IMG/VR virus record: IMGVR_UViG_638341082_000009
Location: 1 to 10,666 of that record
Strand: one strand, 5' to 3'
DNA: 10,666 nucleotides
Source of the DNA: a virus
Lineage: Duplodnaviria; Heunggongvirae; Uroviricota; Caudoviricetes
The notes beneath the pieces were generated by a model. That model was not told where the DNA came from. It saw nothing but the letters and a program-made list of their open reading frames with translations, and ran no database searches. The first letter of the stretch is position 1, and each line of letters starts with the position of its first letter. Positions 1-10,666 of the stretch are shown one piece after another. The translations under genes were made by a program, and so were the position numbers.

Positions 1-1053
1 TTACGGGGTAATGCCAACCGCTGCCGCCACTTTGTCGCCACTTGGCAGCGTTGCCAGAGGATTGAAACGGAGCGCCGTTTCTAGATGATCCGGTGCCAGA
101 TGTGCGTAACGCATAGTCATTTTTATATCGTGGTGTCCGAGAATTTTTTGTAAGGCCAGAATGTTTCCACCCGACATCATGAAGTGCGCCGCAAACGTAT
201 GGCGCAGAACGTGTGTGAGTTGACCGCGAGGGAGCACGATAGACGTTTTTTCCATCACGGATAAAAATTGAAAATAGCAGTCTGTGAAGAAATTGAACCC
301 ATCAAGCGCCATGATCTCTTCATAAAGCTCTTTACTGATAGGGATGCTTCTGTTTTTCTTCCCCTTCGTTCTTACAAAGGTAATTCGGTATTTAGTCACC
401 TGTGATCGGGTAAGGTTTATTGCTTCTCGCCAGCGTGCGCCTGTGCTTAAGCATATCTTGACTACCAGTGCCAGAATTGGGTCCTGACGTTTGCAATCAG
501 CCAGCAGTTCAACAATCTGCTCATGGGTAAGCCATGCCATCTCTTTTTCTGCGATGGTGAATTTTCGCATGTTCTCCAGTGGGTTTGGATACGACCATTC
601 GCCCAGGCGGGATAGTTCGCTAAAAACACTACTTAGATAGCTTTGCTCCAGGTTAATGGTGACCGGGCTGGCTCCTTTCTTCCATTTCTCGCTGAAGTAG
701 ATCTCACCTGTCAGGCGTTTATCTCGATAGTGGGCAAACATTTTAGAGGTGAGATTGGTTGCAAGAGGATTGCCTAGAGCGTCAACCATCAGCAGCAATT
801 TGTCATAGACATGCTGCCCAGCAGTCAGAGATTTACCATGTAATTTGAACCATAGCTCAACCACGTCTTTCAGGGTTCGACGATCCACTGATTCGCCCAG
901 CCAGGGCTTTGATTCGGTTTCTTCCATCGTGTGACGCTCAAAAGCCAGAGCTTCGCCTTTGGTGGCGAATTGTTTACGCACACGACGCCCACTTCGTCCG
1001 GCGGGGTAACATTCGCAAAGCCATTTCCCTGTGGTGAGTTTTCGTACTGCCAT
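1..1053 (-). CDS. int: Phage integrase (tyrosine recombinase, P2/186-like)
   Basis: 350-aa ORF with stop at 1-3. C-terminal region (HTFAAHFMMSGGNILALQKILGHHDIKMTMRYAHL) is typical of the tyrosine recombinase catalytic domain. Minus-strand RBS GGAGGG about 9 nt upstream of the ATG at 1053. Lies downstream of the repressor in the same orientation, as in the P2/186 lysogenic operon. Confidence 0.9.
   Translation of the reverse strand: MAVRKLTTGKWLCECYPAGRSGRRVRKQFATKGEALAFERHTMEETESKPWLGESVDRRTLKDVVELWFKLHGKSLTAGQHVYDKLLLMVDALGNPLATNLTSKMFAHYRDKRLTGEIYFSEKWKKGASPVTINLEQSYLSSVFSELSRLGEWSYPNPLENMRKFTIAEKEMAWLTHEQIVELLADCKRQDPILALVVKICLSTGARWREAINLTRSQVTKYRITFVRTKGKKNRSIPISKELYEEIMALDGFNFFTDCYFQFLSVMEKTSIVLPRGQLTHVLRHTFAAHFMMSGGNILALQKILGHHDIKMTMRYAHLAPDHLETALRFNPLATLPSGDKVAAAVGITP
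19..40. repeat. Left copy of 22-bp imperfect direct repeat (candidate attL core), inside the 3' end of int
   Basis: CGCTGCCGCCACTTTGTCGCCA at 19..40 matches CGCTGCCGCCATTTTGTCGCCA at 7812..7833 at 21 of 22 positions. Similarity ends on both sides of the 22 bp. The two copies bracket all phage-like genes. Confidence 0.5.
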
Positions 1054-1143
1054 AAAAAATGCCCTCCAGTGGAGAGCATTTATACTGTTTTTTTATACAG
1101 TGTCAATGTATGATGATTGGATAACTATACATATGTTATGTGT

Positions 1144-1824
1144 TTAATGCATTTTAGTTACATCTATGTTTTTATTGATTGTCTCTTTGTTACTGGAAAG
1201 TCTTTGTTCTTTTCTTTTAATGTATAACTCCCAACGAATATTATTCATTATGATAGCGTAGATATTAAAAATAAATGTCTTTACTACTAACACTAAGTAA
1301 ATAAGGCTAGTCCCTATAACACAGTATCCAAATTTAATAATTAATTCTTTTATCGATTTTGAATATGGAAATAAATCAATTATATTGCCAATTATTCCAT
1401 CTTTTTGACAAAAGAGAATTATTATTAGATAAATGAAAGTAAACGTAATAAATGAAATGAAAACTTTCATAAATGCCATAAAGTTATATTTTAACGTGGG
1501 CATCTGTGTTTTTTTATGTTGTATTGACATCATCTGAAGAAACATCTCGGGTTTGGATAGTGTTGCAAATATTGTGAAACCAGCAATGAGAAAACCTAAG
1601 GTTGTCACTGCAAAGTTAAAACCAATCAAAGCCCAGTTTCTAATGTCAGATACTAAATGAGACATATCCTTCTCAATAAAAAAAGAGTTTGTTAATAAAA
1701 AAATAGATGCTGTGAGCAAAATGCAAATATGGAATGTACTAATAGTAATCCGTTTGCAGAGCAAGTAAACATCCCAAAGGTTTTTCTCTTTGGTTATTTC
1801 TTTAGCATCTATTTTATTTATCAT
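1144..1824 (-). CDS. Hypothetical membrane protein, about 4 predicted TM helices; candidate effector of a two-gene prophage cargo module
   Basis: 226-aa ORF with four long hydrophobic runs (e.g. ISTFHICILLTASIFLLTNSFFI, WALIGFNFAVTTLGFLIAGFTIFATL, FMAFMKVFISFITFTFIYLIIILFC, LIYLVLVVKTFIFNIYAIIM). Its ATG overlaps the upstream gene's stop as ATGA at 1821-1824. Strongly AT-rich, roughly 30% G+C by manual count of sampled stretches. No family recognised. Confidence 0.6.
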   Translation of the reverse strand: MINKIDAKEITKEKNLWDVYLLCKRITISTFHICILLTASIFLLTNSFFIEKDMSHLVSDIRNWALIGFNFAVTTLGFLIAGFTIFATLSKPEMFLQMMSIQHKKTQMPTLKYNFMAFMKVFISFITFTFIYLIIILFCQKDGIIGNIIDLFPYSKSIKELIIKFGYCVIGTSLIYLVLVVKTFIFNIYAIIMNNIRWELYIKRKEQRLSSNKETINKNIDVTKMH

Positions 1825-2849
1825 CGACCAAACCTTTCATATATATTGCTAATAATTCTAATCGTCTTTTGTGAAAGAGAACGGGGTAGAGATATCTTAC
1901 CTTCTTCTACAAGATTTTCATACCGCTCATAACTTTCATTTGCAGCTACTACCGTATCCTTTGATAATTCATTCATCTCACTTAACAAAACAAAGTCATC
2001 ATTGCTACCTTTGATTATATCACCATTGTCATCATATCCTTTAATATTTATTCCTGAATTAGCCAATCTGGTTGCTGATGTGAGTTGTTCTAAAACAGCA
2101 CCATGATTCAAGCCTGAATCGGTGTTTGAAAAGCGAATAGATGTAGAAATACTTCCCATTTCGTCTCCGGCACTTTCAAGTGACTCCCAAAATTCGTCGT
2201 TATCAATTTCTTCTTGATTTGTAGGGAGAAGTTTTACTGAGACATTTTGGATTTTATTAAAATTATCAATAAATTGCTCTAGGCTTTGTTTGTCAGTTAA
2301 CGGCGTTATTCTTAGCTTCGGGCGTTTGATTTCGTTCCGTAAGCTTTTTTTAGTGACTCGAGGTAAGTCAGGGTTTTCTTTGCGTTCTTCTTGTGCGGTT
2401 TCGTATAAATGAGATATGTATTTTTCATATTCTATGTTTAAGAAGCACTGACTTGTTGACTGAAAGTTTTGAATTGTGGGAGCACCACTAACTTCCTTGC
2501 AAAGAATTAATCTGTGAGTGTTTAATATTAGAAGAAAGAAAGAGCTCGGGGCTGTTTCAAGCTCTTTATGATCTTCAACCAAATCAGCACCATCAAATAC
2601 TTGTTCTCTGGTTAATAATGTATTCTTAATAATCCGACCTTTAATTCCGAGTACTGGGGGTGTTGCTTCTTCGTCAAGTATGACGCATTCAGTATCAATG
2701 AAAAAGAACTCTGATTTGTCAGATATTCTGCGGATGTTTGCCATCTCCAAAAAAGAGGGGAAAACAATTTCATCATAATAGTCTAGCAAAACATCATCAC
2801 CAAAACGGAGAGTATAATTTCCAAATTCGAGTTTTTTTATAAAATCCAT
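1821..2849 (-). CDS. Hypothetical soluble protein (342 aa), first gene of the two-gene cargo module; function unknown
   Basis: 342-aa ORF starting 15 nt after the repressor stop codon, with minus-strand GAGG about 9 nt upstream of the ATG. Strongly AT-rich. Contains acidic stretches; I see no Walker A, HxD or other recognisable catalytic motif. Stop overlaps the start of the downstream membrane-protein gene. Confidence 0.6.
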   Translation of the reverse strand: MDFIKKLEFGNYTLRFGDDVLLDYYDEIVFPSFLEMANIRRISDKSEFFFIDTECVILDEEATPPVLGIKGRIIKNTLLTREQVFDGADLVEDHKELETAPSSFFLLILNTHRLILCKEVSGAPTIQNFQSTSQCFLNIEYEKYISHLYETAQEERKENPDLPRVTKKSLRNEIKRPKLRITPLTDKQSLEQFIDNFNKIQNVSVKLLPTNQEEIDNDEFWESLESAGDEMGSISTSIRFSNTDSGLNHGAVLEQLTSATRLANSGINIKGYDDNGDIIKGSNDDFVLLSEMNELSKDTVVAANESYERYENLVEEGKISLPRSLSQKTIRIISNIYERFGR

Positions 2850-2864
2850 TACTATGCCTCAAGA

Positions 2865-3743
2865 TTAAATAGTACGGTACTGTGAGAAAATTTTGGCAAC
2901 TAATTTTATATCTTCTTTTTCACAATCAAATGTTAAATCATCGTCTGTTACTCGAAGATTGCCTCCAGGTAATAGAAAAATTTGTTTTAACTTGAAATTA
3001 TTTTGGTATTGAACAATCCATCTTCCGTCTTCAACATTAGCTTTATTCATGTGTGCAATATTTATGCAATGTTCGTCTTCAATTGCGAGTAAATCATTAA
3101 AATGAGGAAGCAGGGACTTATCTATCAATAAATGACCAGCATCGAAAATTTGATTGTCAATAAGTTTTACTTTAGGAATTTCTAAAGCTTCACTTTCTTC
3201 GCTTCCAAGTTTTTGCCCGCGCCCAGTTGCTAACCATAAAAGAGAAGTTCTTGTTTCCAACGAGCATCTTATGATCCAGTCAGCTGGGAATGTGTCTCGC
3301 AAGTATCTATTCGCCATTGTGCTTTTAGACACATTCAAATGGTCGGCAAGTTCTTGTCTTGTTTTAAAGCCATACGCTTCCATTAGCCTGTTTATCGCAT
3401 TACGTCCACCTGAATCCAGATTTGGATGGTTCACAATTGGGTTCTCGTTGGTGGTGGCTTTGGGAACATATTGAACCAATGATGCTGGTTCCTCTAATTT
3501 AGCGGGAACTTCGGTATTCTTAGGAAATGGCACGCCTTTTCCGAATGAGAGCCACTCTATAGATGCTCCTGTTTCAATTGCACACTGAATTACCCAGTCA
3601 GCAGGAAATGCGTCACGCATCCAGCGCGTTCCCATAGTACTTGCAGATACATTGAACTGTTCACATAGGGCTTGCCGCGTCTTGAATCCATACGCTTCAA
3701 GCATGCGCGTTATGACTGCCTGTCCTCCGTTTTTGAAATTCAT
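2865..3743 (-). CDS. cI: Phage 186 CI-like immunity repressor with tandemly duplicated N-terminal HTH domain
   Basis: 292 aa. Two paralogous roughly 60-aa segments (ITRMLEAYGFKTRQALCEQFNVSASTMGTRWMRDAFPADWVIQCAIETGASIEWLSFGKG and INRLMEAYGFKTRQELADHLNVSKSTMANRYLRDTFPADWIIRCSLETRTSLLWLATGRG) match the pattern of the 186 CI DNA-binding domain as I recall it. The C-terminal part (GRWIVQYQNNFKLKQIFLLPGGNLRVTDDDLTFDCEKEDIKLVAKIF) resembles the 186 CI C-terminal domain. Divergent from an Apl/Cox-like gene. Confidence 0.8.
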   Translation of the reverse strand: MNFKNGGQAVITRMLEAYGFKTRQALCEQFNVSASTMGTRWMRDAFPADWVIQCAIETGASIEWLSFGKGVPFPKNTEVPAKLEEPASLVQYVPKATTNENPIVNHPNLDSGGRNAINRLMEAYGFKTRQELADHLNVSKSTMANRYLRDTFPADWIIRCSLETRTSLLWLATGRGQKLGSEESEALEIPKVKLIDNQIFDAGHLLIDKSLLPHFNDLLAIEDEHCINIAHMNKANVEDGRWIVQYQNNFKLKQIFLLPGGNLRVTDDDLTFDCEKEDIKLVAKIFSQYRTI

Positions 3744-3769
3744 CTAGTACGCCTTTGAGTAATATTGAG

Positions 3770-3798
3770 TTGACACTTCTCAAATGAAGAATTAATGT
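3770..3798 (+). promoter_or_regulatory. Candidate sigma70 early lytic promoter (pR/Pe-like) in the repressor-apl switch region
   Basis: TTGACA at 3770-3775, 17-bp spacer, TAATGT at 3793-3798, reading rightward toward the Apl-like gene. Sits in the 125-bp divergent intergenic region between the cI start (3743) and the apl start (3869). Confidence 0.45.
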
Positions 3799-3868
3799 GT
3801 GCGAAAGTGAACTTGACGGTGTTAATCACCAGTTACCACACATCATGTTAATCGAGGAATCTTGCATC

Positions 3869-4090
3869 ATGACTCCACATATTTCAATCACCTTAGCTGT
3901 TCCATCTGTTTCTATTGAGAAATACAGCGAACTGACTGGCTTATCTATCGACACCATCAATGACATGCTGGCTGATGGACGTCTTATTCGCCATCGTCTC
4001 CGTAAGGATAAAAAGCGAGAAAAGGTGATGATCAATATCGCAGCAATGACTGTTGATGCACTCGCTGAATGCAATTTGAGCATTAACTAG
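3869..4090 (+). CDS. apl: Apl/Cox-like excisionase and transcriptional regulator (small HTH protein)
   Basis: Start chosen at the ATG at 3869 because GAGGAA lies 9 nt upstream and the longer ORF start at 3797 would fall inside the predicted promoter. Contains an HTH-like segment (YSELTGLSIDTINDMLADGRLIR). First rightward gene, divergent from the repressor, as in the 186/P2 switch. Confidence 0.5.
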   Translation: MTPHISITLAVPSVSIEKYSELTGLSIDTINDMLADGRLIRHRLRKDKKREKVMINIAAMTVDALAECNLSIN

Positions 4091-4104
4091 TTCCATTTTG
4101 GGTT

Positions 4105-4485
4105 ATGTCAGAGATGTCGAATATGTTTGATTACCAAGTTTCCAAACATCCACATTTTGATGAAGCCTGTCGTGCATTCGCATTGCGCCACAACCTGGTG
4201 CAACTGGCAGAACGTGCTGGCATGAATGTGCAGATTCTGCGGAACAAGCTGAACCCAGCTCAACCTCATTTATTAACCGCACCAGAAATCTGGCTGCTTA
4301 CCGATCTGACTGAAGATTCAACGCTGGTAGATGGTTTTCTGGCGCAGATTCATTGTCTGCCATGTGTACCGATTAATGAGGTGGCAAAAGAGAAACTGCC
4401 ACATTACGTCATGAGTGCAACCGCAGAGATCGGGCGTGTTGCTGCAGGTGCGGTATCTGATGAAAGTGCGTGCGCATCAGTATGA
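4105..4485 (+). CDS. cII: CII-like phage regulatory protein (186 CII/CP76-like), probably 3'-truncated or chimeric at a deletion junction
   Basis: 126-aa ORF after apl with an HTH-like segment ([19 protein letters not shown]). Its 3' end runs 26 nt into the X start at 4460, where the gene neighbourhood switches abruptly from early-region to late-region genes. Start codon uncertain (ATG at 4105, 4114 or 4123). Confidence 0.5.
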
Positions 4486-4663
4486 CACGGTGGACGCGCT
4501 TTGCTGGCGTCATTACGGGCGCACGCAGGGTGTCACGGAGCAGGTACTGAAGGCAAATCCGGGGCTTGCCGAATACGGCCCCTTTTTACCTCACGGGCTA
4601 CAGGTGGAGCTGCCGGACATTCCGACAACCACCACCGTGCAGACCGTCCAGCTATGGGACTGA
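4460..4663 (+). CDS. X: P2 gpX-like tail protein X (LysM-like)
   Basis: 67-aa product from the internal ATG at 4460 ([54 protein letters not shown]...), matching the length and sequence pattern of P2 gpX. Followed by holin and endolysin genes as in the P2 X-Y-K order. Confidence 0.8.
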   Translation: MKVRAHQYDTVDALCWRHYGRTQGVTEQVLKANPGLAEYGPFLPHGLQVELPDIPTTTTVQTVQLWD

Positions 4664-4666
4664 ATT

Positions 4667-4882
4667 ATGACGCTTGAGCGAATCAGCGCCTTTATCACGT
4701 ATTGCATCGCCGTCGTGCTAGCCTGGCTGGGCGATTTGTCCATCAAGGATGCCTCAACGCTGGGCGGCCTGATGATCGGTGTGCTGATGCTGGCTATCAA
4801 CTGGTACTACAAACACAAAGCCTACCAGCTTCTGCGCGACGGGCAGATCTCGCGGGAGGACTATGAATCCATCAATCGTTAA
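4667..4882 (+). CDS. Y: Phage holin (P2 gpY position)
   Basis: 71-aa small membrane protein with two hydrophobic helices and a charged C-terminus (KHKAYQLLRDGQISREDYESINR). Sits between X and the endolysin start, and its 3' end overlaps the endolysin ATG at 4863. Confidence 0.65.
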   Translation: MTLERISAFITYCIAVVLAWLGDLSIKDASTLGGLMIGVLMLAINWYYKHKAYQLLRDGQISREDYESINR

Positions 4883-5006
4883 ACGCTGCCTTGTCGGGGT
4901 TGTGCTGGCTATTGCTGCCACGCTGCCGGGTTTTCAGCAGCTTCACACCTCCGTGGAGGGACTGAAACTGATCGCCGATTACGAAGGCTGTCGTCTGCAG
5001 CCGTAG
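4863..5006 (+). pseudogene. K: N-terminal fragment of a SAR-type endolysin (gpK position), truncated after about 47 codons
   Basis: MNPSIVKRCLVGVVLAIAATLPGFQQLHTSVEGLKLIADYEGCRLQP then stop. This is the hydrophobic signal-arrest-release segment and the start of the lysozyme catalytic motif (EGC...). The rest of the catalytic domain is absent and the sequence continues directly into tape-measure C-terminal coding sequence. Confidence 0.6.
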
Positions 5007-5032
5007 GTGCTCTGCTTAGTCCGATAGGTCTT

Positions 5033-5923
5033 GTGGTTACTGCACTGGCGGGCGTGGCACTGGTTGTCTGGAAATACTGGCAACCCATCACTGCATTTCT
5101 CGGTGGCGTGGTGGAAGGATTCAAAGCGGCGGCAGGTCCCGTCAGTGCTGCGTTTGAACCACTTAAGCCTGTGTTCCAGTGGATTGGCGACAAAGTGCAG
5201 GCGTTGTGGGGCAGGTTTACTGATCTGCTGACGCCAGTTAAGTCGACCTCTGCAGAACTGCAGAGTGCAGCGGCAATGGGGCGACGATTCGGGGAGGCAC
5301 TGGCGGAAGGGCTGAATATGGTCATGCATCCGCTGGACTCCCTGAAATCCGGCGTTTCCTGGTTGCTGGAGAAGCTCGGCATTGTCAGTAAAGAGGCCGC
5401 AAAGGCAAAACTGCCGGAAAGCGTGACGCGTCAGCAACCTGCGACGGTGAATGCCGACGGTAAAGTGATGATGCCATCGGGTGGTTTTCCATCATGGGGA
5501 TATGGCTTTGCGGGGATGTATGACAGCGGCGGCTATATCCCGCGCGGGCAGTTTGGCATTGTCGGTGAAAACGGGCCTGAAATTGTCAACGGCCCGGCAA
5601 ACGTGACCAGCCGGAGAAATACCGCTGCACTGGCTGCGGTTGTCGCCGGAATGATGGGCGTTGCTGCCGCGCCTGCAGAGCTTCCACCGTTGCATCCTTT
5701 GGCACTTCCCGCGAAAGGCGGCGAAGCGATGGTGAGTCGTGCAGCCACTGTGCCGCCCGTTCAACGGATTGAGGCACCGACGCAGATCATCATTCAGACG
5801 CAGCCAGGACAAAGTGCGCAGGATATTGCGCGGGAGGTGGCCCGCCAGCTTGATGAACGTGAACGCAGGCTGAAGGCAAAGGCCAGGAGTAACTACAGCG
5901 ATCAGGGGGGATACGACGCATGA
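5033..5923 (+). pseudogene. T: C-terminal remnant of tail tape-measure protein (gpT position), no credible native start
   Basis: Reading frame is open from 4883 with no ATG or RBS of its own; 5033 is merely the first GTG. The product ends ...KAKARSNYSDQGGYDA and overlaps the U start as ATGA at 5920-5923. Position immediately upstream of U and D matches the P2 order T-U-D. High G+C, unlike the lysogeny module. Confidence 0.7.
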
Positions 5924-6405
5924 TGATGGTACTGGGATTGTACGTGTTTATGCTGCGCACCGTGCCGTATCAGGAACTGCAGTATCAACGTAGCTGGCGA
6001 CATGCGGCAAACAGTCGGGTAAACCGTCGTCCGTCCACGCAGTTTCTGGGACCGGACAACGACATGCTGACGCTTTCCGGTGTTCTTATGCCGGAGATAA
6101 CAGGCGGCAGGCTGTCGTTGCTGGCTCTGGAGCAGATGGCAGAACAGGGGAAAGCATGGCCCCTGATTGAAGGTAGCGGCACGATTTACGGCATGTATGT
6201 GATTGAGGGACTGAATCAGACTAAAACGGAGTTTTTCCGCGACGGTATGCCGCGCCGGATTGAGTTCACCCTGTCGCTCAAACGGGTGGATGAATCCCTG
6301 TCCGATATGTTCGGTGATCTCAGTTCGCAGCTGAATAATCTGCAGGACACGGCAACATCTGCATTAAGCGATATCAGTAAAACTGTGGGAGGGCTGCTGT
6401 CGTGA
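5920..6405 (+). CDS. U: P2 gpU-like tail protein
   Basis: 161 aa starting MMMVLGLYVFMLRTVPYQELQYQRSWRH..., closely matching P2 gpU as I recall it. Overlaps T (ATGA) and D (GTGA). Confidence 0.85.
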   Translation: MMMVLGLYVFMLRTVPYQELQYQRSWRHAANSRVNRRPSTQFLGPDNDMLTLSGVLMPEITGGRLSLLALEQMAEQGKAWPLIEGSGTIYGMYVIEGLNQTKTEFFRDGMPRRIEFTLSLKRVDESLSDMFGDLSSQLNNLQDTATSALSDISKTVGGLLS

Positions 6406-7502
6406 ATTTCAGCTCTGAACTGCTTAACAAAGGCAACAAAACTCCCGCATTCAGCATCAGTATTGAAGGCAAGGATATCACCACTGTGCTGGATAACCGC
6501 CTGATGGGGCTTACGCTGACGGATAACCGGGGCTTTGAAGCGGACCAGCTTGATCTGGAGCTGGACGACGCCGACGGAAAAATCGTGCTGCCGCGCCGTG
6601 GTGCGGTCATTACGCTGGCGCTGGGCTGGAAGGGGCAGCCGCTTTTCCCGAAAGGGGCATTCACGGTGGACGAGATTGAACACACTGGCGCACCGGACCG
6701 CCTGACTATCCGGGCGCGAAGTGCTGATTTTCGGGAAACGCTGAATACCCGCCGTGAAAAATCGTGGCACAAGACCACTGTCGGGGAAGTGGTGAAGGAA
6801 ATAGCTGCGCGTCACAAACTGAAGATGGCACTGGGTAAAGACCTGTCGGATAAACCCGTGGCTCATATAGACCAGACTAATGAGAGTGACGGCAGTTTTT
6901 TGATGCGGCTGGCGCGCCAGTACGGTGCCATTGCATCGGTGAAAAATGGCAATCTGTTATTCATCCGGCAGGGACAGGGCAAAAGCGCCAGCGGTAAACC
7001 ACTGCCGGTGATCACTATCACACGTAAGGACGGCGACAGTCACCGCTTTACCCTGGCAGATCGCGGAGCTTACACGGGGGTAATTGCCAGCTGGTTGCAT
7101 ACCCGTGAACCCGCGAAGAAAGAAAGCACTACGGTGAAGCGTAAGCGCAGGACTAAGAAGCAGAAGAAAGAGCCGGAAGCGAAGCAGGGCGATTACCTGG
7201 TGGGGACGGATGAAAACGTGCTGGTACTTAATCGCACTTATGCCAACCGGAGTAACGCCGAACGAGCGGCAAAAATGCAGTGGGAACGCCTGCAACGCGG
7301 CGTTGCGTCATTCTCGCTACAACTGGCGGAAGGGCGGGCAGATCTCTACACGGAAATGCCAGTGAAAGTCAGTGGCTTTAAACAGCCGATAGATGATGCG
7401 GAATGGACCATTACGACTCTGACACATACCGTCAGCCCGGATAATGGTTTTACGACCAGTCTGGAGCTTGAAGTGAGGATTGATGATTTCGAAATGGAAT
7501 GA
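6402..7502 (+). CDS. D: P2 gpD-like tail protein (late control gene D)
   Basis: 366 aa with a GTG start overlapping the U stop. Lies between U and ogr as in P2. Lysine/arginine-rich internal segment (KRKRRTKKQKKEPEAK). Confidence 0.85.
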   Translation: MNFSSELLNKGNKTPAFSISIEGKDITTVLDNRLMGLTLTDNRGFEADQLDLELDDADGKIVLPRRGAVITLALGWKGQPLFPKGAFTVDEIEHTGAPDRLTIRARSADFRETLNTRREKSWHKTTVGEVVKEIAARHKLKMALGKDLSDKPVAHIDQTNESDGSFLMRLARQYGAIASVKNGNLLFIRQGQGKSASGKPLPVITITRKDGDSHRFTLADRGAYTGVIASWLHTREPAKKESTTVKRKRRTKKQKKEPEAKQGDYLVGTDENVLVLNRTYANRSNAERAAKMQWERLQRGVASFSLQLAEGRADLYTEMPVKVSGFKQPIDDAEWTITTLTHTVSPDNGFTTSLELEVRIDDFEME

Positions 7503-7592
7503 TTCTTCGCAATGGAGAACTTTTAAGTTTGCAAAATGGAATAATGCGGTATCATTATTGTGAATTTAGCAAAAATGGGGAGAACTCGAAAA

Positions 7593-7811
7593 ATGATGAT
7601 TTGCCCACTGTGTGGAAGTGCCGCCCATACTCGCAGCAGTTTTCAGGTATCTTCATTGACCAAAGAGCGTTACAACCAGTGCCAGAACATTAACTGCAGC
7701 CATACTTTTGTTACCCATGAAACTTTTGTTCGTTCGATTGCAACGCCAAAAGAGTCAAATCCGGTTCAGCCGCATCCAATGAAATCAGGACAGGTGGCGC
7801 TCTCTCTTTGA
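7593..7811 (+). CDS. ogr: Ogr-family zinc-finger late-gene transcriptional activator
   Basis: 72-aa product from the ATG at 7593 (MMICPLCGSAAHTRSSFQVSSLTKERYNQCQNINCSHTF...) with the Cys-x2-Cys...Cys-x4-Cys arrangement typical of Ogr/Delta. GGAG upstream. Sits at the prophage right end next to the att candidate, as in P2. Confidence 0.85.
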   Translation: MMICPLCGSAAHTRSSFQVSSLTKERYNQCQNINCSHTFVTHETFVRSIATPKESNPVQPHPMKSGQVALSL

Positions 7812-7833
7812 CGCTGCCGCCATTTTGTCGCCA
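7812..7833. repeat. Right copy of 22-bp imperfect direct repeat (candidate attR core)
   Basis: CGCTGCCGCCATTTTGTCGCCA, immediately after the ogr stop codon (7809-7811); 21/22 identical to 19..40. Confidence 0.5.
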
Positions 7834-7891
7834 TCGTTAAAAAACAGTGCTTCTAACATCATGATTTTAAAAGGCATAAATTTCAGGCAAC

Positions 7892-7934
7892 AAAAAACCC
7901 ATCAACCTTGAACCGAAATGGCGGGGTTGATGGG
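7892..7934 (-). terminator. Candidate rho-independent terminator downstream of ybjL
   Basis: Perfect 10-bp inverted repeat CCCATCAACC (7898-7907) and GGTTGATGGG (7925-7934) with a 17-nt loop. Plus-strand AAAAAA at 7892-7897 gives a U-tract immediately after the hairpin on the minus-strand transcript. The loop is long, so confidence is moderate. Confidence 0.5.
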
Positions 7935-8046
7935 CTCCACAAAATGGGGACATCAAAGAAAAGCAGTGGCACTAATTAAGACTGATGCCCTGCGGAAAAG
8001 TTCTGCGGTTGTGCAAAAAAATTTCATTTTCAGGGCAACTTCAGTT

Positions 8047-9732
8047 TTATCCTAATCCTGGCCATACCATGACGATGATTGTCCCTGCCAGCGTCAGCAG
8101 GACGTTGGCGATTGCATAGGTGCCCGCATAGCCCAGCGCCGGGATGTTACTGCGAGCTGTATCACTGATGATCTCCATTGCCGGCGCGCAGGTACGTGCG
8201 CCCATCATTGCGCCGAACAACAGCGCGCGGTTCATTCGCAATACATAAGCACCGAACAAGAAACAGATAACCACGGGCACCAGACTGACAATCAATCCGG
8301 CAATCAACATCTGACCGCCAATCGCGCCCAGGCCGTTATTAATACCGCTACCGGCGCTCAGACCAACGCCTGCCATAAACACCATCAAGCCGAACTCTTT
8401 CACCATGCTTAATGCACCCTGCGGAATGTAACCGAAGGTCGGGTGGTTAGCACGCATAAAGCCCAGCATAATTCCGGCGAATAACAACCCGGCAGCGTTC
8501 CCCATGCCGAAACTGAATGTGCTGAACTGGAAGGTGATCATCCCGATCATCAGCCCAATAACAAAGAAGGCGCAGAATGCCAGCAGGTCAGTGACCTGGC
8601 TGTGAATCGAGATAAAGCCGATGCGATCGGCGATGGTTTTTACGCGGCGGGCATCGCCGCTGACTTGTAAAACGTCACCTTTGTTAAGCACGACGTTGTC
8701 ATCTATCGGCATCTCAATCTGGCTACGAATGACGCGGTTAAGGAAGCAACCGTGATCGGTCAACTTCAGTTGTGCGAGACGTTTACCTACAGCGTTATGG
8801 TTTTTAACGACCACTTCTTCAGTGACGATACGCATGTCGAGAAGGTCACGATCGAAAACTTCTTTACCGTTACGGAAGCTGGGATCGAGTCGGGCATGGG
8901 CGTCGGGATAGCCTACCAACGCTATTTCATCGCCCATTTGTAGCACGGCATCACCGTCTGGATTTGCCAGAATCCCGTTACGTCGAATACGTTCAATGTA
9001 GCAGCCGGTTTGTCGATAAATACCCAGTTCACGCAGATTTTTGCCGTCGGTCCAGGCCACCAGTTCCGGGCCGACGCGATAGGCGCGGATCACCGGTAAA
9101 TAAACCTTACGGTTGGCATCAGTGTCCAGGCCACGTTCGCGGGCGATTTGCTGGGCGCTGGTCTGTAAGTCCTGATGCTGCAATTTCGGCAAGTAACGCG
9201 CACCAACAATCAAACTCACCAGACCGATTAAATAGGTTAAGGCATACCCGAGGCTCAGATTATCCAGTGCCAGTGAGAGCTGCCTGCTTTCCATGCCGGA
9301 ATGACGCAGTGTATCGCCAGCACCGACCAGAACCGGTGTCGACGTCATAGAGCCTGCTAACATACCGGCCGTCAGGCCAATATCCCAGCCAAACAGCTTA
9401 CCTAACCCTAAGGCGATCACCAGCGCACTGCCAACCATCACCAGTGCTAACATTAGGTAATTTTTCCCATCGCGAAAAAAAATGGAAAAAAAGTTCGGTC
9501 CGGCTTCGACCCCGACGCAGAAAATAAACAGCATAAAGCCAAGATTAAGCGCATCGGTGTTAATGCTGAAATGTTGTTGGCCTAATAACAGCGATACGAC
9601 TAAAACGCCAATGGAATTACCCAGTTGGATCGAACCAAGTCGTAACTTTCCGAGACATAGCCCAAGCGCGAGGACCACAAATAATAACAGAATGTAATTC
9701 CCATTTAACAATTCGGCGACGTTTATATTCAC
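8047..9732 (-). CDS. ybjL: Putative transport protein YbjL (AAE-family transporter with internal TrkA-C-type cytoplasmic domains)
   Basis: 561-aa product with hydrophobic N- and C-terminal transporter halves around a soluble central region, GTG start. Length and the ybjL-ybjM-grxA neighbourhood match E. coli. Confidence 0.9.
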
Positions 9733-10001
9733 GGAGGCTAACTTCTTGTTTACTAGTAAGCTGTTGAAAGAAATGGTAATTTACGATAATGTTTTTTACC
9801 AGAATTCAGGGCGCAGATTCATTCAGCGCACCTAAACGATAGTAAAGTAACAATATATTTTACTAGTGTAATCACATTAGGTATCAACGGCTATATGAAT
9901 TGCGTTGGCCTATATTAGCATGGAATGCGAAGCGGCTTTATCTTACTGAACGCCACACTGGCGAAAAATGTGTTCGATAGACGCAGTGTCAGGAGGAACG
10001 A

Positions 10002-10379
10002 GTGAAACATAAACAACGTTGGGCGGGGGCAATCTGCTGTTTTGTCCTCTTCATTGTGGTGTGCCTTTTTCTGGCGACGCACATGAAAGGCGCTTTTCGG
10101 GCTGCCGGGCATCCTGAAATCGGCTTGCTATTTTTCATTCTTCCTGGAGCAGTCGCCAGCTTCTTTTCACAGCGTAGAGAAGTCCTGAAACCTCTGTTTG
10201 GCGCAATGCTGGCGGCACCCTGTTCGATGCTCATTATGCGGCTGTTTTTTTCACCGACGCGCTCATTCTGGCAAGAGCTGGCATGGTTACTAAGCGCGGT
10301 GTTCTGGTGTGCGCTGGGGGCACTGTGTTTCTTATTTATCAGTAGTTTGTTTAAACCACAGCACAGAAAAAATCAGTAA
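10002..10379 (+). CDS. ybjM: Inner membrane protein YbjM
   Basis: 125-aa hydrophobic protein with a GTG start and AGGAGG 5 nt upstream. Divergent from ybjL and convergent with grxA, as in E. coli. Confidence 0.85.
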   Translation: MKHKQRWAGAICCFVLFIVVCLFLATHMKGAFRAAGHPEIGLLFFILPGAVASFFSQRREVLKPLFGAMLAAPCSMLIMRLFFSPTRSFWQELAWLLSAVFWCALGALCFLFISSLFKPQHRKNQ

Positions 10380-10398
10380 AGCCCTCAACGCGAGGGCT
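10380..10398. terminator. Candidate bidirectional terminator hairpin between convergent ybjM and grxA
   Basis: 7-bp stem AGCCCTC / GAGGGCT with a 5-nt loop, lying between the ybjM stop (10377-10379) and the grxA stop (10409-10411). An A-run at 10367-10372 would give a U-run on the grxA transcript, but it is 7 nt from the stem. Confidence 0.4.
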
Positions 10399-10408
10399 TG
10401 TCAGACGA

Positions 10409-10666
10409 TCAGGCGTCCAGATTTTCTTTCACCCATGCAGCAAAATCGGTATAGCCGCCGATATGTTGCTGATCGACAAAAATCTGCGGCACGGTTTCTA
10501 CGGGTTTACCTGCCTTTTGTTGTAGATCTTCTTTAGTGATCCCTTCCGCACGAATATCTACATACTGATACTGAAAATCATCGCGTTCATTGCTCAATTT
10601 CTCAGCCAGATCTTTTGCACGCACACAGTAAGGGCAACCCGAACGACCAAAAATAACGGTTTGCAT
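10409..10666 (-). CDS. grxA: Glutaredoxin 1
   Basis: 85 aa, MQTVIFGRSGCPYCVRAKDLAEKL..., with the CPYC active site characteristic of Grx1 rather than NrdH (CVQC). Start codon at the window end, so the gene is complete. Confidence 0.92.
   Translation of the reverse strand: MQTVIFGRSGCPYCVRAKDLAEKLSNERDDFQYQYVDIRAEGITKEDLQQKAGKPVETVPQIFVDQQHIGGYTDFAAWVKENLDA

Follow-up and report, generated by a model that had tools for sequence, protein, structure and literature searches.

The stretch analyzed here (10,666 nt, positions 1 to 10,666 of the IMG/VR virus record IMGVR_UViG_638341082_000009; hereafter, the window) carries, at the rcdA-rybB-ybjL site, the lysogeny end of a decayed prophage of the 186-like (P2-family) kind, in which two cargo genes stand between the repressor gene cI and the integrase gene int. 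Our analysis points, with moderate confidence, to the following arrangement: The cargo would be a RexAB-type pair that sits in a defense hotspot and is transcribed together with cI, and int would form a separate unit, shielded by a terminator hairpin and driven from a promoter of its own under SOS and CII control. An earlier note on this DNA had proposed that int is expressed by read-through across the cargo, which is unlikely in view of a terminator-shaped hairpin that buries the int Shine-Dalgarno (SD) sequence and a conserved putative promoter with a LexA box and a CII-type site, features of a kind that the note itself had listed as refuting its proposal. We infer transcription, binding, and phenotype throughout from what was observed, namely, anatomy, folds, conservation, and motif statistics.

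All four open reading frames (ORFs) lie on the minus strand, in the order cI (2865..3743), cargo-1 (1821..2849), cargo-2 (1144..1824), and int (1..1053). The cI stop at 2865 is followed after a 15-nt gap by the cargo-1 ATG at 2849, the two cargo genes overlap by 4 nt (ATGA, 1824..1821), and 90 nt separate the cargo-2 stop at 1144 from the int ATG at 1053; the co-orientation and spacings given in the earlier note proved exact. The int gene is intact and encodes a P2/186-type tyrosine integrase of 350 amino acids (Pfam Int_N, E = 2e-32; Phage_integrase, E = 7e-22), with 95 to 97% nucleotide identity to the int genes of Klebsiella phage 4LV2017 and Escherichia phage vB_EcoM-813R9.

The leader and putative promoter of int

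Read on the minus strand, the 90-nt gap has the sequence ATGTATAGTTATCCAATCATCATACAT-TGACA-CTGTATAAAAAAACAG-TATAAA-TGCTCTCCACTGGAGGGCATTTTTT-ATG. The absence of any convincing terminator among the four genes, as first claimed, stands for the cI/cargo-1 and cargo-1/cargo-2 junctions and fails for this gap, where an 11-bp hairpin and a run of six T residues (T6) precede int. The absence of an independent promoter was not confirmed for this gap either, in which TTGACA, a LexA box, and TATAAA precede int. The int leader hairpin (1054..1081, minus strand) reads AAATGCTCTCC-ACT-GGAGGGCATTT and overlaps the T6 run (1059..1054). Its 11-bp stem, with a 7-bp GC-rich core, spans 1081..1057 with the int ATG right behind it, and it folds at −16 kcal/mol (z = −5.3), which none of 200 shuffles equaled. 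In shape, as a GC-rich stem-loop followed by a U run, it resembles a Rho-independent terminator, and the int SD sequence, GGAGG, lies within its 3′ arm. The built-in terminator scan did not report this hairpin though it has the features listed for that scan, probably because the A-T extension of the stem uses part of the T run; a negative outcome of such a scan does not show that a hairpin is missing. When the gap was considered as an Rfam RNA, it gave a sub-threshold match to Phe_leader alone (25.5 bits versus a gathering score of 55), which we took as chance.

The hairpin recurs in related loci, where the SD sequence is paired in 77 of 82 unique int leaders, and in 72 the fold beats that of 95% of the shuffles of the same leader (median z, −4.5). 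A T tract is kept in only 34 of the 82, which suggests that the universal feature is SD occlusion and that termination was added in the E. coli and Klebsiella types, the window included. The stem sequences vary with the pairing kept, as in GCTCTCC/GGAGGGC, GCCCTC/GAGGGC, GTCCTC/GAGGAC, CCCCCTT/AAGGGGG, CTCTCCTAAA/TTTAGGAGAG, and GTAGCCC/GGGCTAC. For 42 leaders aligned with MAFFT, the RNAalifold consensus shrank to a 3-pair CCC/GGG core, as stems of unequal length fall out of register, and per-sequence folds with shuffles were used instead.

Just upstream lies the putative int promoter, P_int (1079..1106, minus strand), with a −35 element TTGACA (1106..1101), a 16-nt spacer, and a −10 element TATAAA (1084..1079). 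From the hexamer spacing, its start is predicted at about 1072-1070, inside or at the end of the 5′ arm of the hairpin, so that RNA from P_int would lack the hairpin and expose the ribosome-binding site. The cI-cargo operon would end at the hairpin and T6 run directly before int, and RNA arriving from cI and the cargo would either be terminated at the hairpin or have its ribosome-binding site occluded. The spacer of P_int is filled by a LexA (SOS) box (1083..1102, minus strand), the 20-mer CACTGTATAAAAAAACAGTA, which is two mismatches away from a strong SOS-box query and was matched in none of 200 shuffles; the 16-nt spacer itself, CTGTATAAAAAAACAG (1100..1085), is the sole CTGT-N8-ACAG in the 10.7-kb window. 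With the box exactly between −35 and −10, the layout is that of a candidate LexA-type promoter.

The block from the −35 element to int is conserved at 94 to 98% beside unrelated cargo, and 136 of 146 matches to the −35/LexA motif have an int-like start codon behind them, in 98 unique variants. Among loci collected by Int homology, a LexA-like box occurs within 110 nt of int in 22 of 24 with Int identity of at least 70%, near int in both of those at 58 to 70% identity, and in 15 of 45 more distant ones; it is absent in all 16 Fels-2-type loci, in which cI abuts int by 5 to 7 nt. Loci without any cargo (L007, L008, L101, L116, L118, and others) have a 78- to 340-nt gap from cI to the int promoter and keep the full promoter, LexA box, and hairpin module, which is therefore not a by-product of cargo insertion.

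A 27-nt CII-type inverted repeat, ATGTATA-N13-CATACAT (1106..1132, minus strand), abuts the −35 element of P_int. In phage 186, the CII site of the establishment promoter pE, ATGTTTG-N13-CAAACAT, directly precedes the pE −35 with the same spacing. The pattern ATGTWT-N15-AWACAT has two perfect matches in the window, at P_int and at the cII start (0.15 expected at one mismatch or fewer), and the CII-type motif is found in 56 of 90 unique int-upstream sequences at a fixed 26 to 27 nt, versus a shuffle rate of 0.001. We rejected the idea that the ATGTAT…ATACAT repeat is an RNA hairpin or operon terminator: Its fold is weak (median z, −0.6), it is fixed at 26 to 27 nt, and it marks the 186 CII site. 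Integron-like capture of cassettes by Int at this repeat is disfavored as well, the other boundary of the block being inside the cI coding sequence. Of the first 40 of 54 additional CII-type copies listed, 35 are 27-mers located 1.2 to 3.0 kb upstream, as far away as pE and the cII start would be, and just 5 are scattered in the cargo region, which also counts against cassette capture. A third match to the CII-type 27-mer, with one mismatch (TTGTAT…AAACAT), lies inside cargo-2 at 1519-1545 and is probably a chance occurrence in AT-rich DNA.

A competing explanation is a single lysogenic operon, cI-cargo-int, in which int would be expressed mainly by read-through from the lysogenic promoter pL or from pE and the int-proximal motifs would be decorative or minor. 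The co-orientation of all four genes fits it, as does the lysogenic operon of 186 (cI-int-orf69, transcribed from pL and pE), where cI and int overlap, int has no promoter of its own, and a terminator appears only past orf69; Fels-2, with a 3-nt cI-int gap, likewise has no int promoter. A number of points weigh in the same direction and against an independently controlled int. Intrinsic terminators are seldom 100% efficient, and a leaky one would allow some read-through in the window. In the 48 of 82 leader variants without a T tract, which include most of those from other lineages, the hairpin cannot act as an intrinsic terminator; RNA polymerase would then pass on into int, which may be transcribed by read-through in those lineages. 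The start of P_int was placed by hexamer spacing, in a window known from sequence alone, and the position weight matrix (PWM) score of P_int, 7.4, lies below the level of shuffles (median best, 10.4), so that its support comes from conservation. As the −35/LexA motif itself served to collect the IMG/VR loci, these are biased for both elements; the Int-homology set, which is free of this bias, is small. Lastly, the half-sites at P_int (ATGTAT/ATACAT) and at pE (ATGTTT/AAACAT) are one position apart, and CII affinity at P_int may be low or absent. Even so, we consider the single operon quite improbable. The hairpin with its T6 run ends at the int ATG, the SD sequence is buried in nearly all leader variants, and the very place that a separate promoter would have to occupy holds a conserved consensus −35, LexA box, and CII-type site, in a module that is missing precisely in the clade where cI abuts int. 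The 186-type layout, with int abutting or overlapping the preceding gene and no signals between them, is not that of the window, whose int is set apart from those of 186 and Fels-2 by cargo, a hairpin or terminator, and its own putative promoter; its cI further differs in having two helix-turn-helix (HTH) domains.

The separate-unit reading of int has precedents for each of its parts. In the fold-back inhibition of IS10, the 5′ arm of a hairpin is encoded ahead of the start site of the element itself, such that translation of transposase from outside RNA is blocked; in P_int, too, the 5′ arm would lie 5′ of the element's own start, and the hairpin would hit read-through RNA alone. In lambda, the establishment activator CII drives int from pI, and LexA-repressed integron integrase promoters likewise join a LexA box to the promoter of a tyrosine recombinase (PMC3108266). 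Unlike these separate precedents from unrelated elements, the int module appears to combine all three features in ~80 nt. In the literature searched, we found neither LexA-controlled int in P2-like phages nor such a module in front of int, which is not proof of absence. During establishment, CII would turn on both pE, for repressor and cargo, and P_int, as lambda CII does for pRE and pI. In a quiescent lysogen, with CII absent and LexA on P_int, int would be off, and upon DNA damage, cleavage of LexA would release Int along with the antirepressor. As cII is truncated in the remnant, the LexA arm alone could still work in it.

An intact relative (L001, NZ_CP122617) has a further LexA box, CTGTAAATATAAACAG, at 21880-21915, with a second half-site-like repeat after it. 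The box is located 5′ of a 62–amino acid ORF and a DinI-like gene, which is the position of p95-tum/orf97 in 186, and this suggests that the family is SOS-inducible through an antirepressor, in line with p95-tum biology (PMC7708051).

The cI-int junction as a defense hotspot

By comparison with related loci, the two cargo genes sit at a recombination-exchangeable defense hotspot between cI and int. Int homology in one genome per species, pooled with the promoter motif in IMG/VR, gave 108 distinct cI-int gaps that span 78 to 3228 nt, 91 of them with cargo. The cargo ORFs in these gaps are co-oriented with cI and int in 125 of 128 cases; the first one starts a median of 20 nt past the cI stop (within 30 nt in 64 of 91), and the last one ends a median of 28 nt ahead of the int promoter motif. 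In 113 loci, the cargo forms 40 protein clusters, and PADLOC models were matched at E ≤ 1e-5 by 8 of the 10 cluster representatives scanned. Among these are P2 Old (E = 2e-234), PD-Lambda-1 (E = 5e-118), HEC-01 (E = 6e-208), PDC-S20/KAP NTPase, and AriA- or PtuA-like ATPases; the least significant of these matches is to PDC-M34B (E = 4e-7). The junction thus shows what defines a hotspot, i.e., conserved flanks around many unrelated gene sets with known defense systems among them.

The boundaries of the exchanged block can be placed on the window. In E. coli genomes with 91 to 96% identity in int and in the 5′ two-thirds of cI, the genes in between differ, and blastn homology to loci with other cargo breaks at 1112-1116, at the −35 of the int promoter, and at 3221-3223, at the end of the second HTH domain of cI. 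The G+C content is 0.27 to 0.37 in the cargo block versus 0.43 to 0.59 in the flanks, and the low G+C covers the cargo plus the 3′ third of cI. The repressor itself has 292 amino acids (versus 192 to 198 in 186-type relatives) and consists of two tandem Phage_CI_repr HTH domains (residues ~9-70 and ~116-177) followed by a 186-type C-terminal domain (Pfam Phage_CI_C); three related loci (L002, L003, and L005) have the same form with 293 to 313 amino acids, and two others (L006 and L009) have the single-HTH form. The C-terminal domain, encoded at 2865..3222, is part of the variable low-GC block, and as the exchange starts inside cI, a cargo type tends to bring its own repressor C-terminal domain. 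Across the 113 loci, cI falls into ~40 C-terminal clusters (at 70% identity) versus only ~10 N-terminal clusters. The C-terminal type goes with the cargo type only in part; cargo cluster 2, for instance, is always accompanied by C-terminal cluster 1.

Hotspots of this kind are known. A cI-int hotspot has been described for K139-like P2-related vibriophages (Rousset et al. 2022, PMC9122126), and P2-like prophages have a minor "integrase-primase" hotspot that holds 8% of P2 systems (PMC13586616). The junction described here resembles both in holding variable defense cargo between a conserved repressor and integrase, and it differs in belonging to 186-type phages of Enterobacterales; in the literature on those two hotspots, we found no description of a regulatory module in front of int or of an exchange that starts inside cI. 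The intact relative L001 also carries an AAA ATPase and RloB-family (AbiL-like) pair at 23973-25959, where the classical P2 hotspot separates the replication and portal genes; this makes it one phage with defense cargo at two hotspots.

The cargo pair and its transcription

The cargo pair is likely of the RexAB type, and we file it there by predicted fold and by architecture rather than by sequence family. Cargo-1 encodes a RexA-like, cytoplasmic protein of 342 amino acids whose AlphaFold model (pLDDT, 84.5) has lambda RexA (8TWQ) as its best solved match, with the whole length aligned by Foldseek (E = 9e-7; probability, 1.0); the predicted structure thus has the RexA-like fold (DUF4747 / PDB 8TWQ). 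Cargo-2 encodes a RexB-like membrane protein of 226 amino acids with four hydrophobic segments in its hydropathy profile and four long helices in its AF2 model (pLDDT, 82), and with these four predicted helices and the 4-nt overlap with cargo-1, it has the properties of a RexAB-type membrane partner. As in lambda RexAB, the genes for a cytoplasmic protein of RexA fold and then for a membrane protein of four passes come directly 3′ of the repressor gene, on the same strand. The two systems differ in protein size (342 versus 279 and 226 versus 144 amino acids), in the carrier, P2/186-type here and lambdoid in lambda, and in the position of the cassette, cI-int here versus cI-N in lambda.

Some results count against this assignment. 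The global TM-score of cargo-1 to RexA is low (0.32 to 0.38), and neither cargo protein has sequence-level similarity to lambda RexA or RexB. In hhalign, lambda RexA and RexB were matched by the cargo profiles with a probability of 1.3% and 0.4%, respectively, so that the link to Rex is one of fold and architecture. Neither protein matches Pfam, PADLOC (E ≤ 0.1), PHROGs, or NCBIfam profiles, a cargo-1 profile built from 42 homologues found nothing at E ≤ 10 among all PDB sequences, and a Foldseek search of the PDB with the cargo-2 model gave no significant match. At the sequence level, cargo-1 therefore does not belong to Pfam DUF4747 or to the Rex defense models, and 3 of its 42 homologues match DUF4747 weakly (best E = 1.7e-4).

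RexAB-type pairs with little sequence similarity have been validated by experiment as defenses (PMC6426596, PMC6426606, and PMC12894663), and DUF4747 is the domain described for lambda RexA and for the sensors of three prophage defenses, those of Sbash, CarolAnn, and Butters (PMC6426596, PMC6426606, and PMC7542560). CarolAnn gp44/43, Sbash gp30/31, and RexABpp of the Pseudomonas putida prophage P1 are likewise prophage-borne two-gene modules of a sensor and a membrane protein, and like the cargo pair, they are known to be related only through DUF4747 or structural similarity to RexA (PMC6426606, PMC6426596, and PMC12894663). Those systems were tested experimentally, whereas the pair in the window is known from its genes and likened by description. 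By analogy, a RexA-like cytoplasmic sensor or DNA binder would detect infection and activate the membrane partner, upon which the infected cell would stop growing; the mechanism expected to be shared with lambda RexAB is that RexA activates its membrane partner, membrane integrity is lost, and the infection aborts.

The pair could instead tune the lysis-lysogeny switch of the prophage itself or be a silent leftover, and the exchange of the cI C-terminal domain along with the cargo and the defective state of the prophage would agree with this. We hold it to be highly improbable. Homologues of both cargo proteins are common in Gammaproteobacteria, each always adjoining the other, and away from prophage switch regions, Pseudomonas sp. 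and Vibrio harveyi keep the two together. In V. harveyi (L085, CP125875; 3240-6649), the homologous RexAB-like pair stands beside Druantia druA and an AlpA-type regulator, i.e., in the setting of a defense island or mobile element, away from any cI-int junction. Both ORFs in the window are intact, copies with 100% identity are common (162 and 150 member sequences), and the other occupants of the cI-int slot are recognized defense systems. The view that the cargo is a defense module was thus probably correct, given a RexAB-type pair in a slot that elsewhere holds Old, PD-Lambda-1, HEC-01, and PDC-S20.

The pair is probably transcribed as the distal part of the repressor operon, as the earlier note had supposed. 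Terminator scan and sequence reading found nothing terminator-like in the cI/cargo-1 gap or at the cargo-1/cargo-2 junction, and the 15-nt gap contains a GAGG SD sequence and no hairpin. Cotranscription is further supported by the near-uniform co-orientation and tight packing that hold across unrelated cargo families, and by precedent: Repressor-coupled pairs are documented for lambda cI-rexA-rexB and for Gordonia phage CarolAnn 45-44-43, the CarolAnn pair is coexpressed with the repressor, and RexABpp lies 3′ of a CI-like repressor (PMC6426606, PMC6426596, and PMC12894663). In a lysogen, the cargo would be transcribed from pL and, during establishment, from the CII-dependent pE, such that, like rexAB in lambda, it would be expressed whenever cI is.

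Whether the cargo instead has its own promoter, in the AT-rich 3′ part of cI or in the 15-nt gap, with expression largely independent of cI transcription, was weighed against this cotranscription. In lambda, there is an internal promoter for rexB. The swapped block, which begins inside cI at 3222, could bring its own signals, and genes 30/31 of mycobacteriophage Sbash do use their own promoter (PMC6426606). A weak promoter-like sequence, TTGCCA-19-TACTAT (2899..2869), just 5′ of cargo-1, is a point against dependence on cI, as it would start transcription just 5′ of the cargo-1 SD sequence; its score, however, is below chance level, and its 19-nt spacer is poor. A sigma-70 PWM scan of the minus strand gave a top score of 8.5 versus a median best of 10.4 in shuffles, and a separate promoter scan gave 8 matches versus 11.2 in shuffles. 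As the PWM scan has no discriminating power on this AT-rich DNA, nothing was concluded from single-sequence promoter scores. The 125/128 co-orientation and median 20-nt spacing across 40 unrelated cargo families fit dependence on the cI promoter, whereas cargo of the P4 hotspot, by contrast, occurs in either orientation (PMC9122126). We regard a separate cargo promoter as unlikely.

The prophage remnant and its clade

Beyond cI, the window keeps the early control region of a 186-like phage. As in 186, it has a convergent layout of putative pR and pL, apl and cII, the 186-type set of cI domains, and the identical class of CII motif at the cII start. A putative pR (3770..3798, plus strand; TTGACA, 17-nt spacer, TAATGT) faces pL; it has the top plus-strand PWM score within 3701-4000 (10.9), and its location parallels that of the annotated 186 pR. 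The putative lysogenic promoter pL (3859..3887, minus strand; TTGAAA, 17-nt spacer, CAAGAT) overlaps the start of apl. Its PWM score is weak (6.6), and it was assigned by analogy to 186, in whose record the pL −10 lies just 5′ of the apl ATG and the −35 within apl. The apl/cox-type excisionase-repressor gene (3869..4090, plus strand) encodes 73 amino acids (PHROG 575, Cox-like excisionase and repressor; E = 2e-28). At the cII start, the CII binding-site motif ATGTTTG-N13-CAAACAT (4123..4149, plus strand) is of the same class and in the same position as the annotated 186 CII site, and it is presumed to be the activator site of pE, from which transcription would run leftward into cI and the cargo.

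The cII gene (4123..4485, plus strand; Pfam Phage_CP76) is truncated. Its match to intact relatives stops at ~4459 in all hits, after 112 of 169 codons, and the gene is joined there to DNA of tail gene X; in L001, the intact gene has 510 nt. On its 3′ side lie fragments of tail and lysis genes and then ogr. Internal deletions were located at ~4453-4460, which joins cII (~112 codons) to tail gene X and holin DNA, and at 4863-5033; an N-terminal lysozyme fragment is followed by the C-terminal 296 amino acids of a tape-measure-like ORF. The cII/tail junction was found in none of the 5,426 complete E. coli genomes of the collection. The suggestion in the earlier note that the cassette accounts for the persistence of the lysogeny module in a decayed prophage is a conjecture. 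In intact relatives at the same rcdA-side site, the 186-like early region is complete (fil, a DksA/TraR-like gene, dam, and a replication endonuclease gene). The remnant adjoins E. coli ybjL, ybjM, and grxA. A full-length gene for the small RNA RybB (7889-7967, minus strand; 105 bits versus a gathering score of 40) stands between ogr (7560-7811) and ybjL, which indicates that the prophage fills the rcdA-rybB interval, and the right attachment site should lie at or beside the 3′ end of rybB.

Taken together, the cargo is a new member of the RexAB type in a known kind of hotspot, and the putative, insulated int promoter is a new combination of known regulatory motifs. A wider reading, which we offer tentatively and hold to be possible rather than probable, is that int was freed from the repressor operon, across a large Enterobacterales clade of P2/186-like phages, by the ~80-nt module (CII site, LexA operator, and a hairpin that blocks upstream RNA only) acting as a general insulator, which thereby made the cI-int junction a permissive slot. 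Promoterless defense cassettes could then enter behind cI and be expressed in lysogens with integrase control undisturbed, and the supply of Int would form a second, LexA-gated checkpoint of excision beside the Tum antirepressor.

In 186-like prophages of E. coli, Klebsiella, and relatives, the slot between cI and int is thus a rich and probably promoter-sharing defense hotspot, and a widespread pair of "hypothetical" genes that current defense-finder models miss gains a likely function in RexAB-type abortive infection. That cargo expression would track cI is a testable prediction, one that bears on predicting which prophage-borne defenses are constitutively on. Our data further suggest that a large sister clade departs from the textbook picture of 186, in which int shares the repressor transcript; in that clade, int seems to be under lambda-like (CII) and integron-like (LexA) control and protected from outside transcription. 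Excision competence of these prophages and their remnants would then be SOS-gated at the level of Int, which can likewise be tested.

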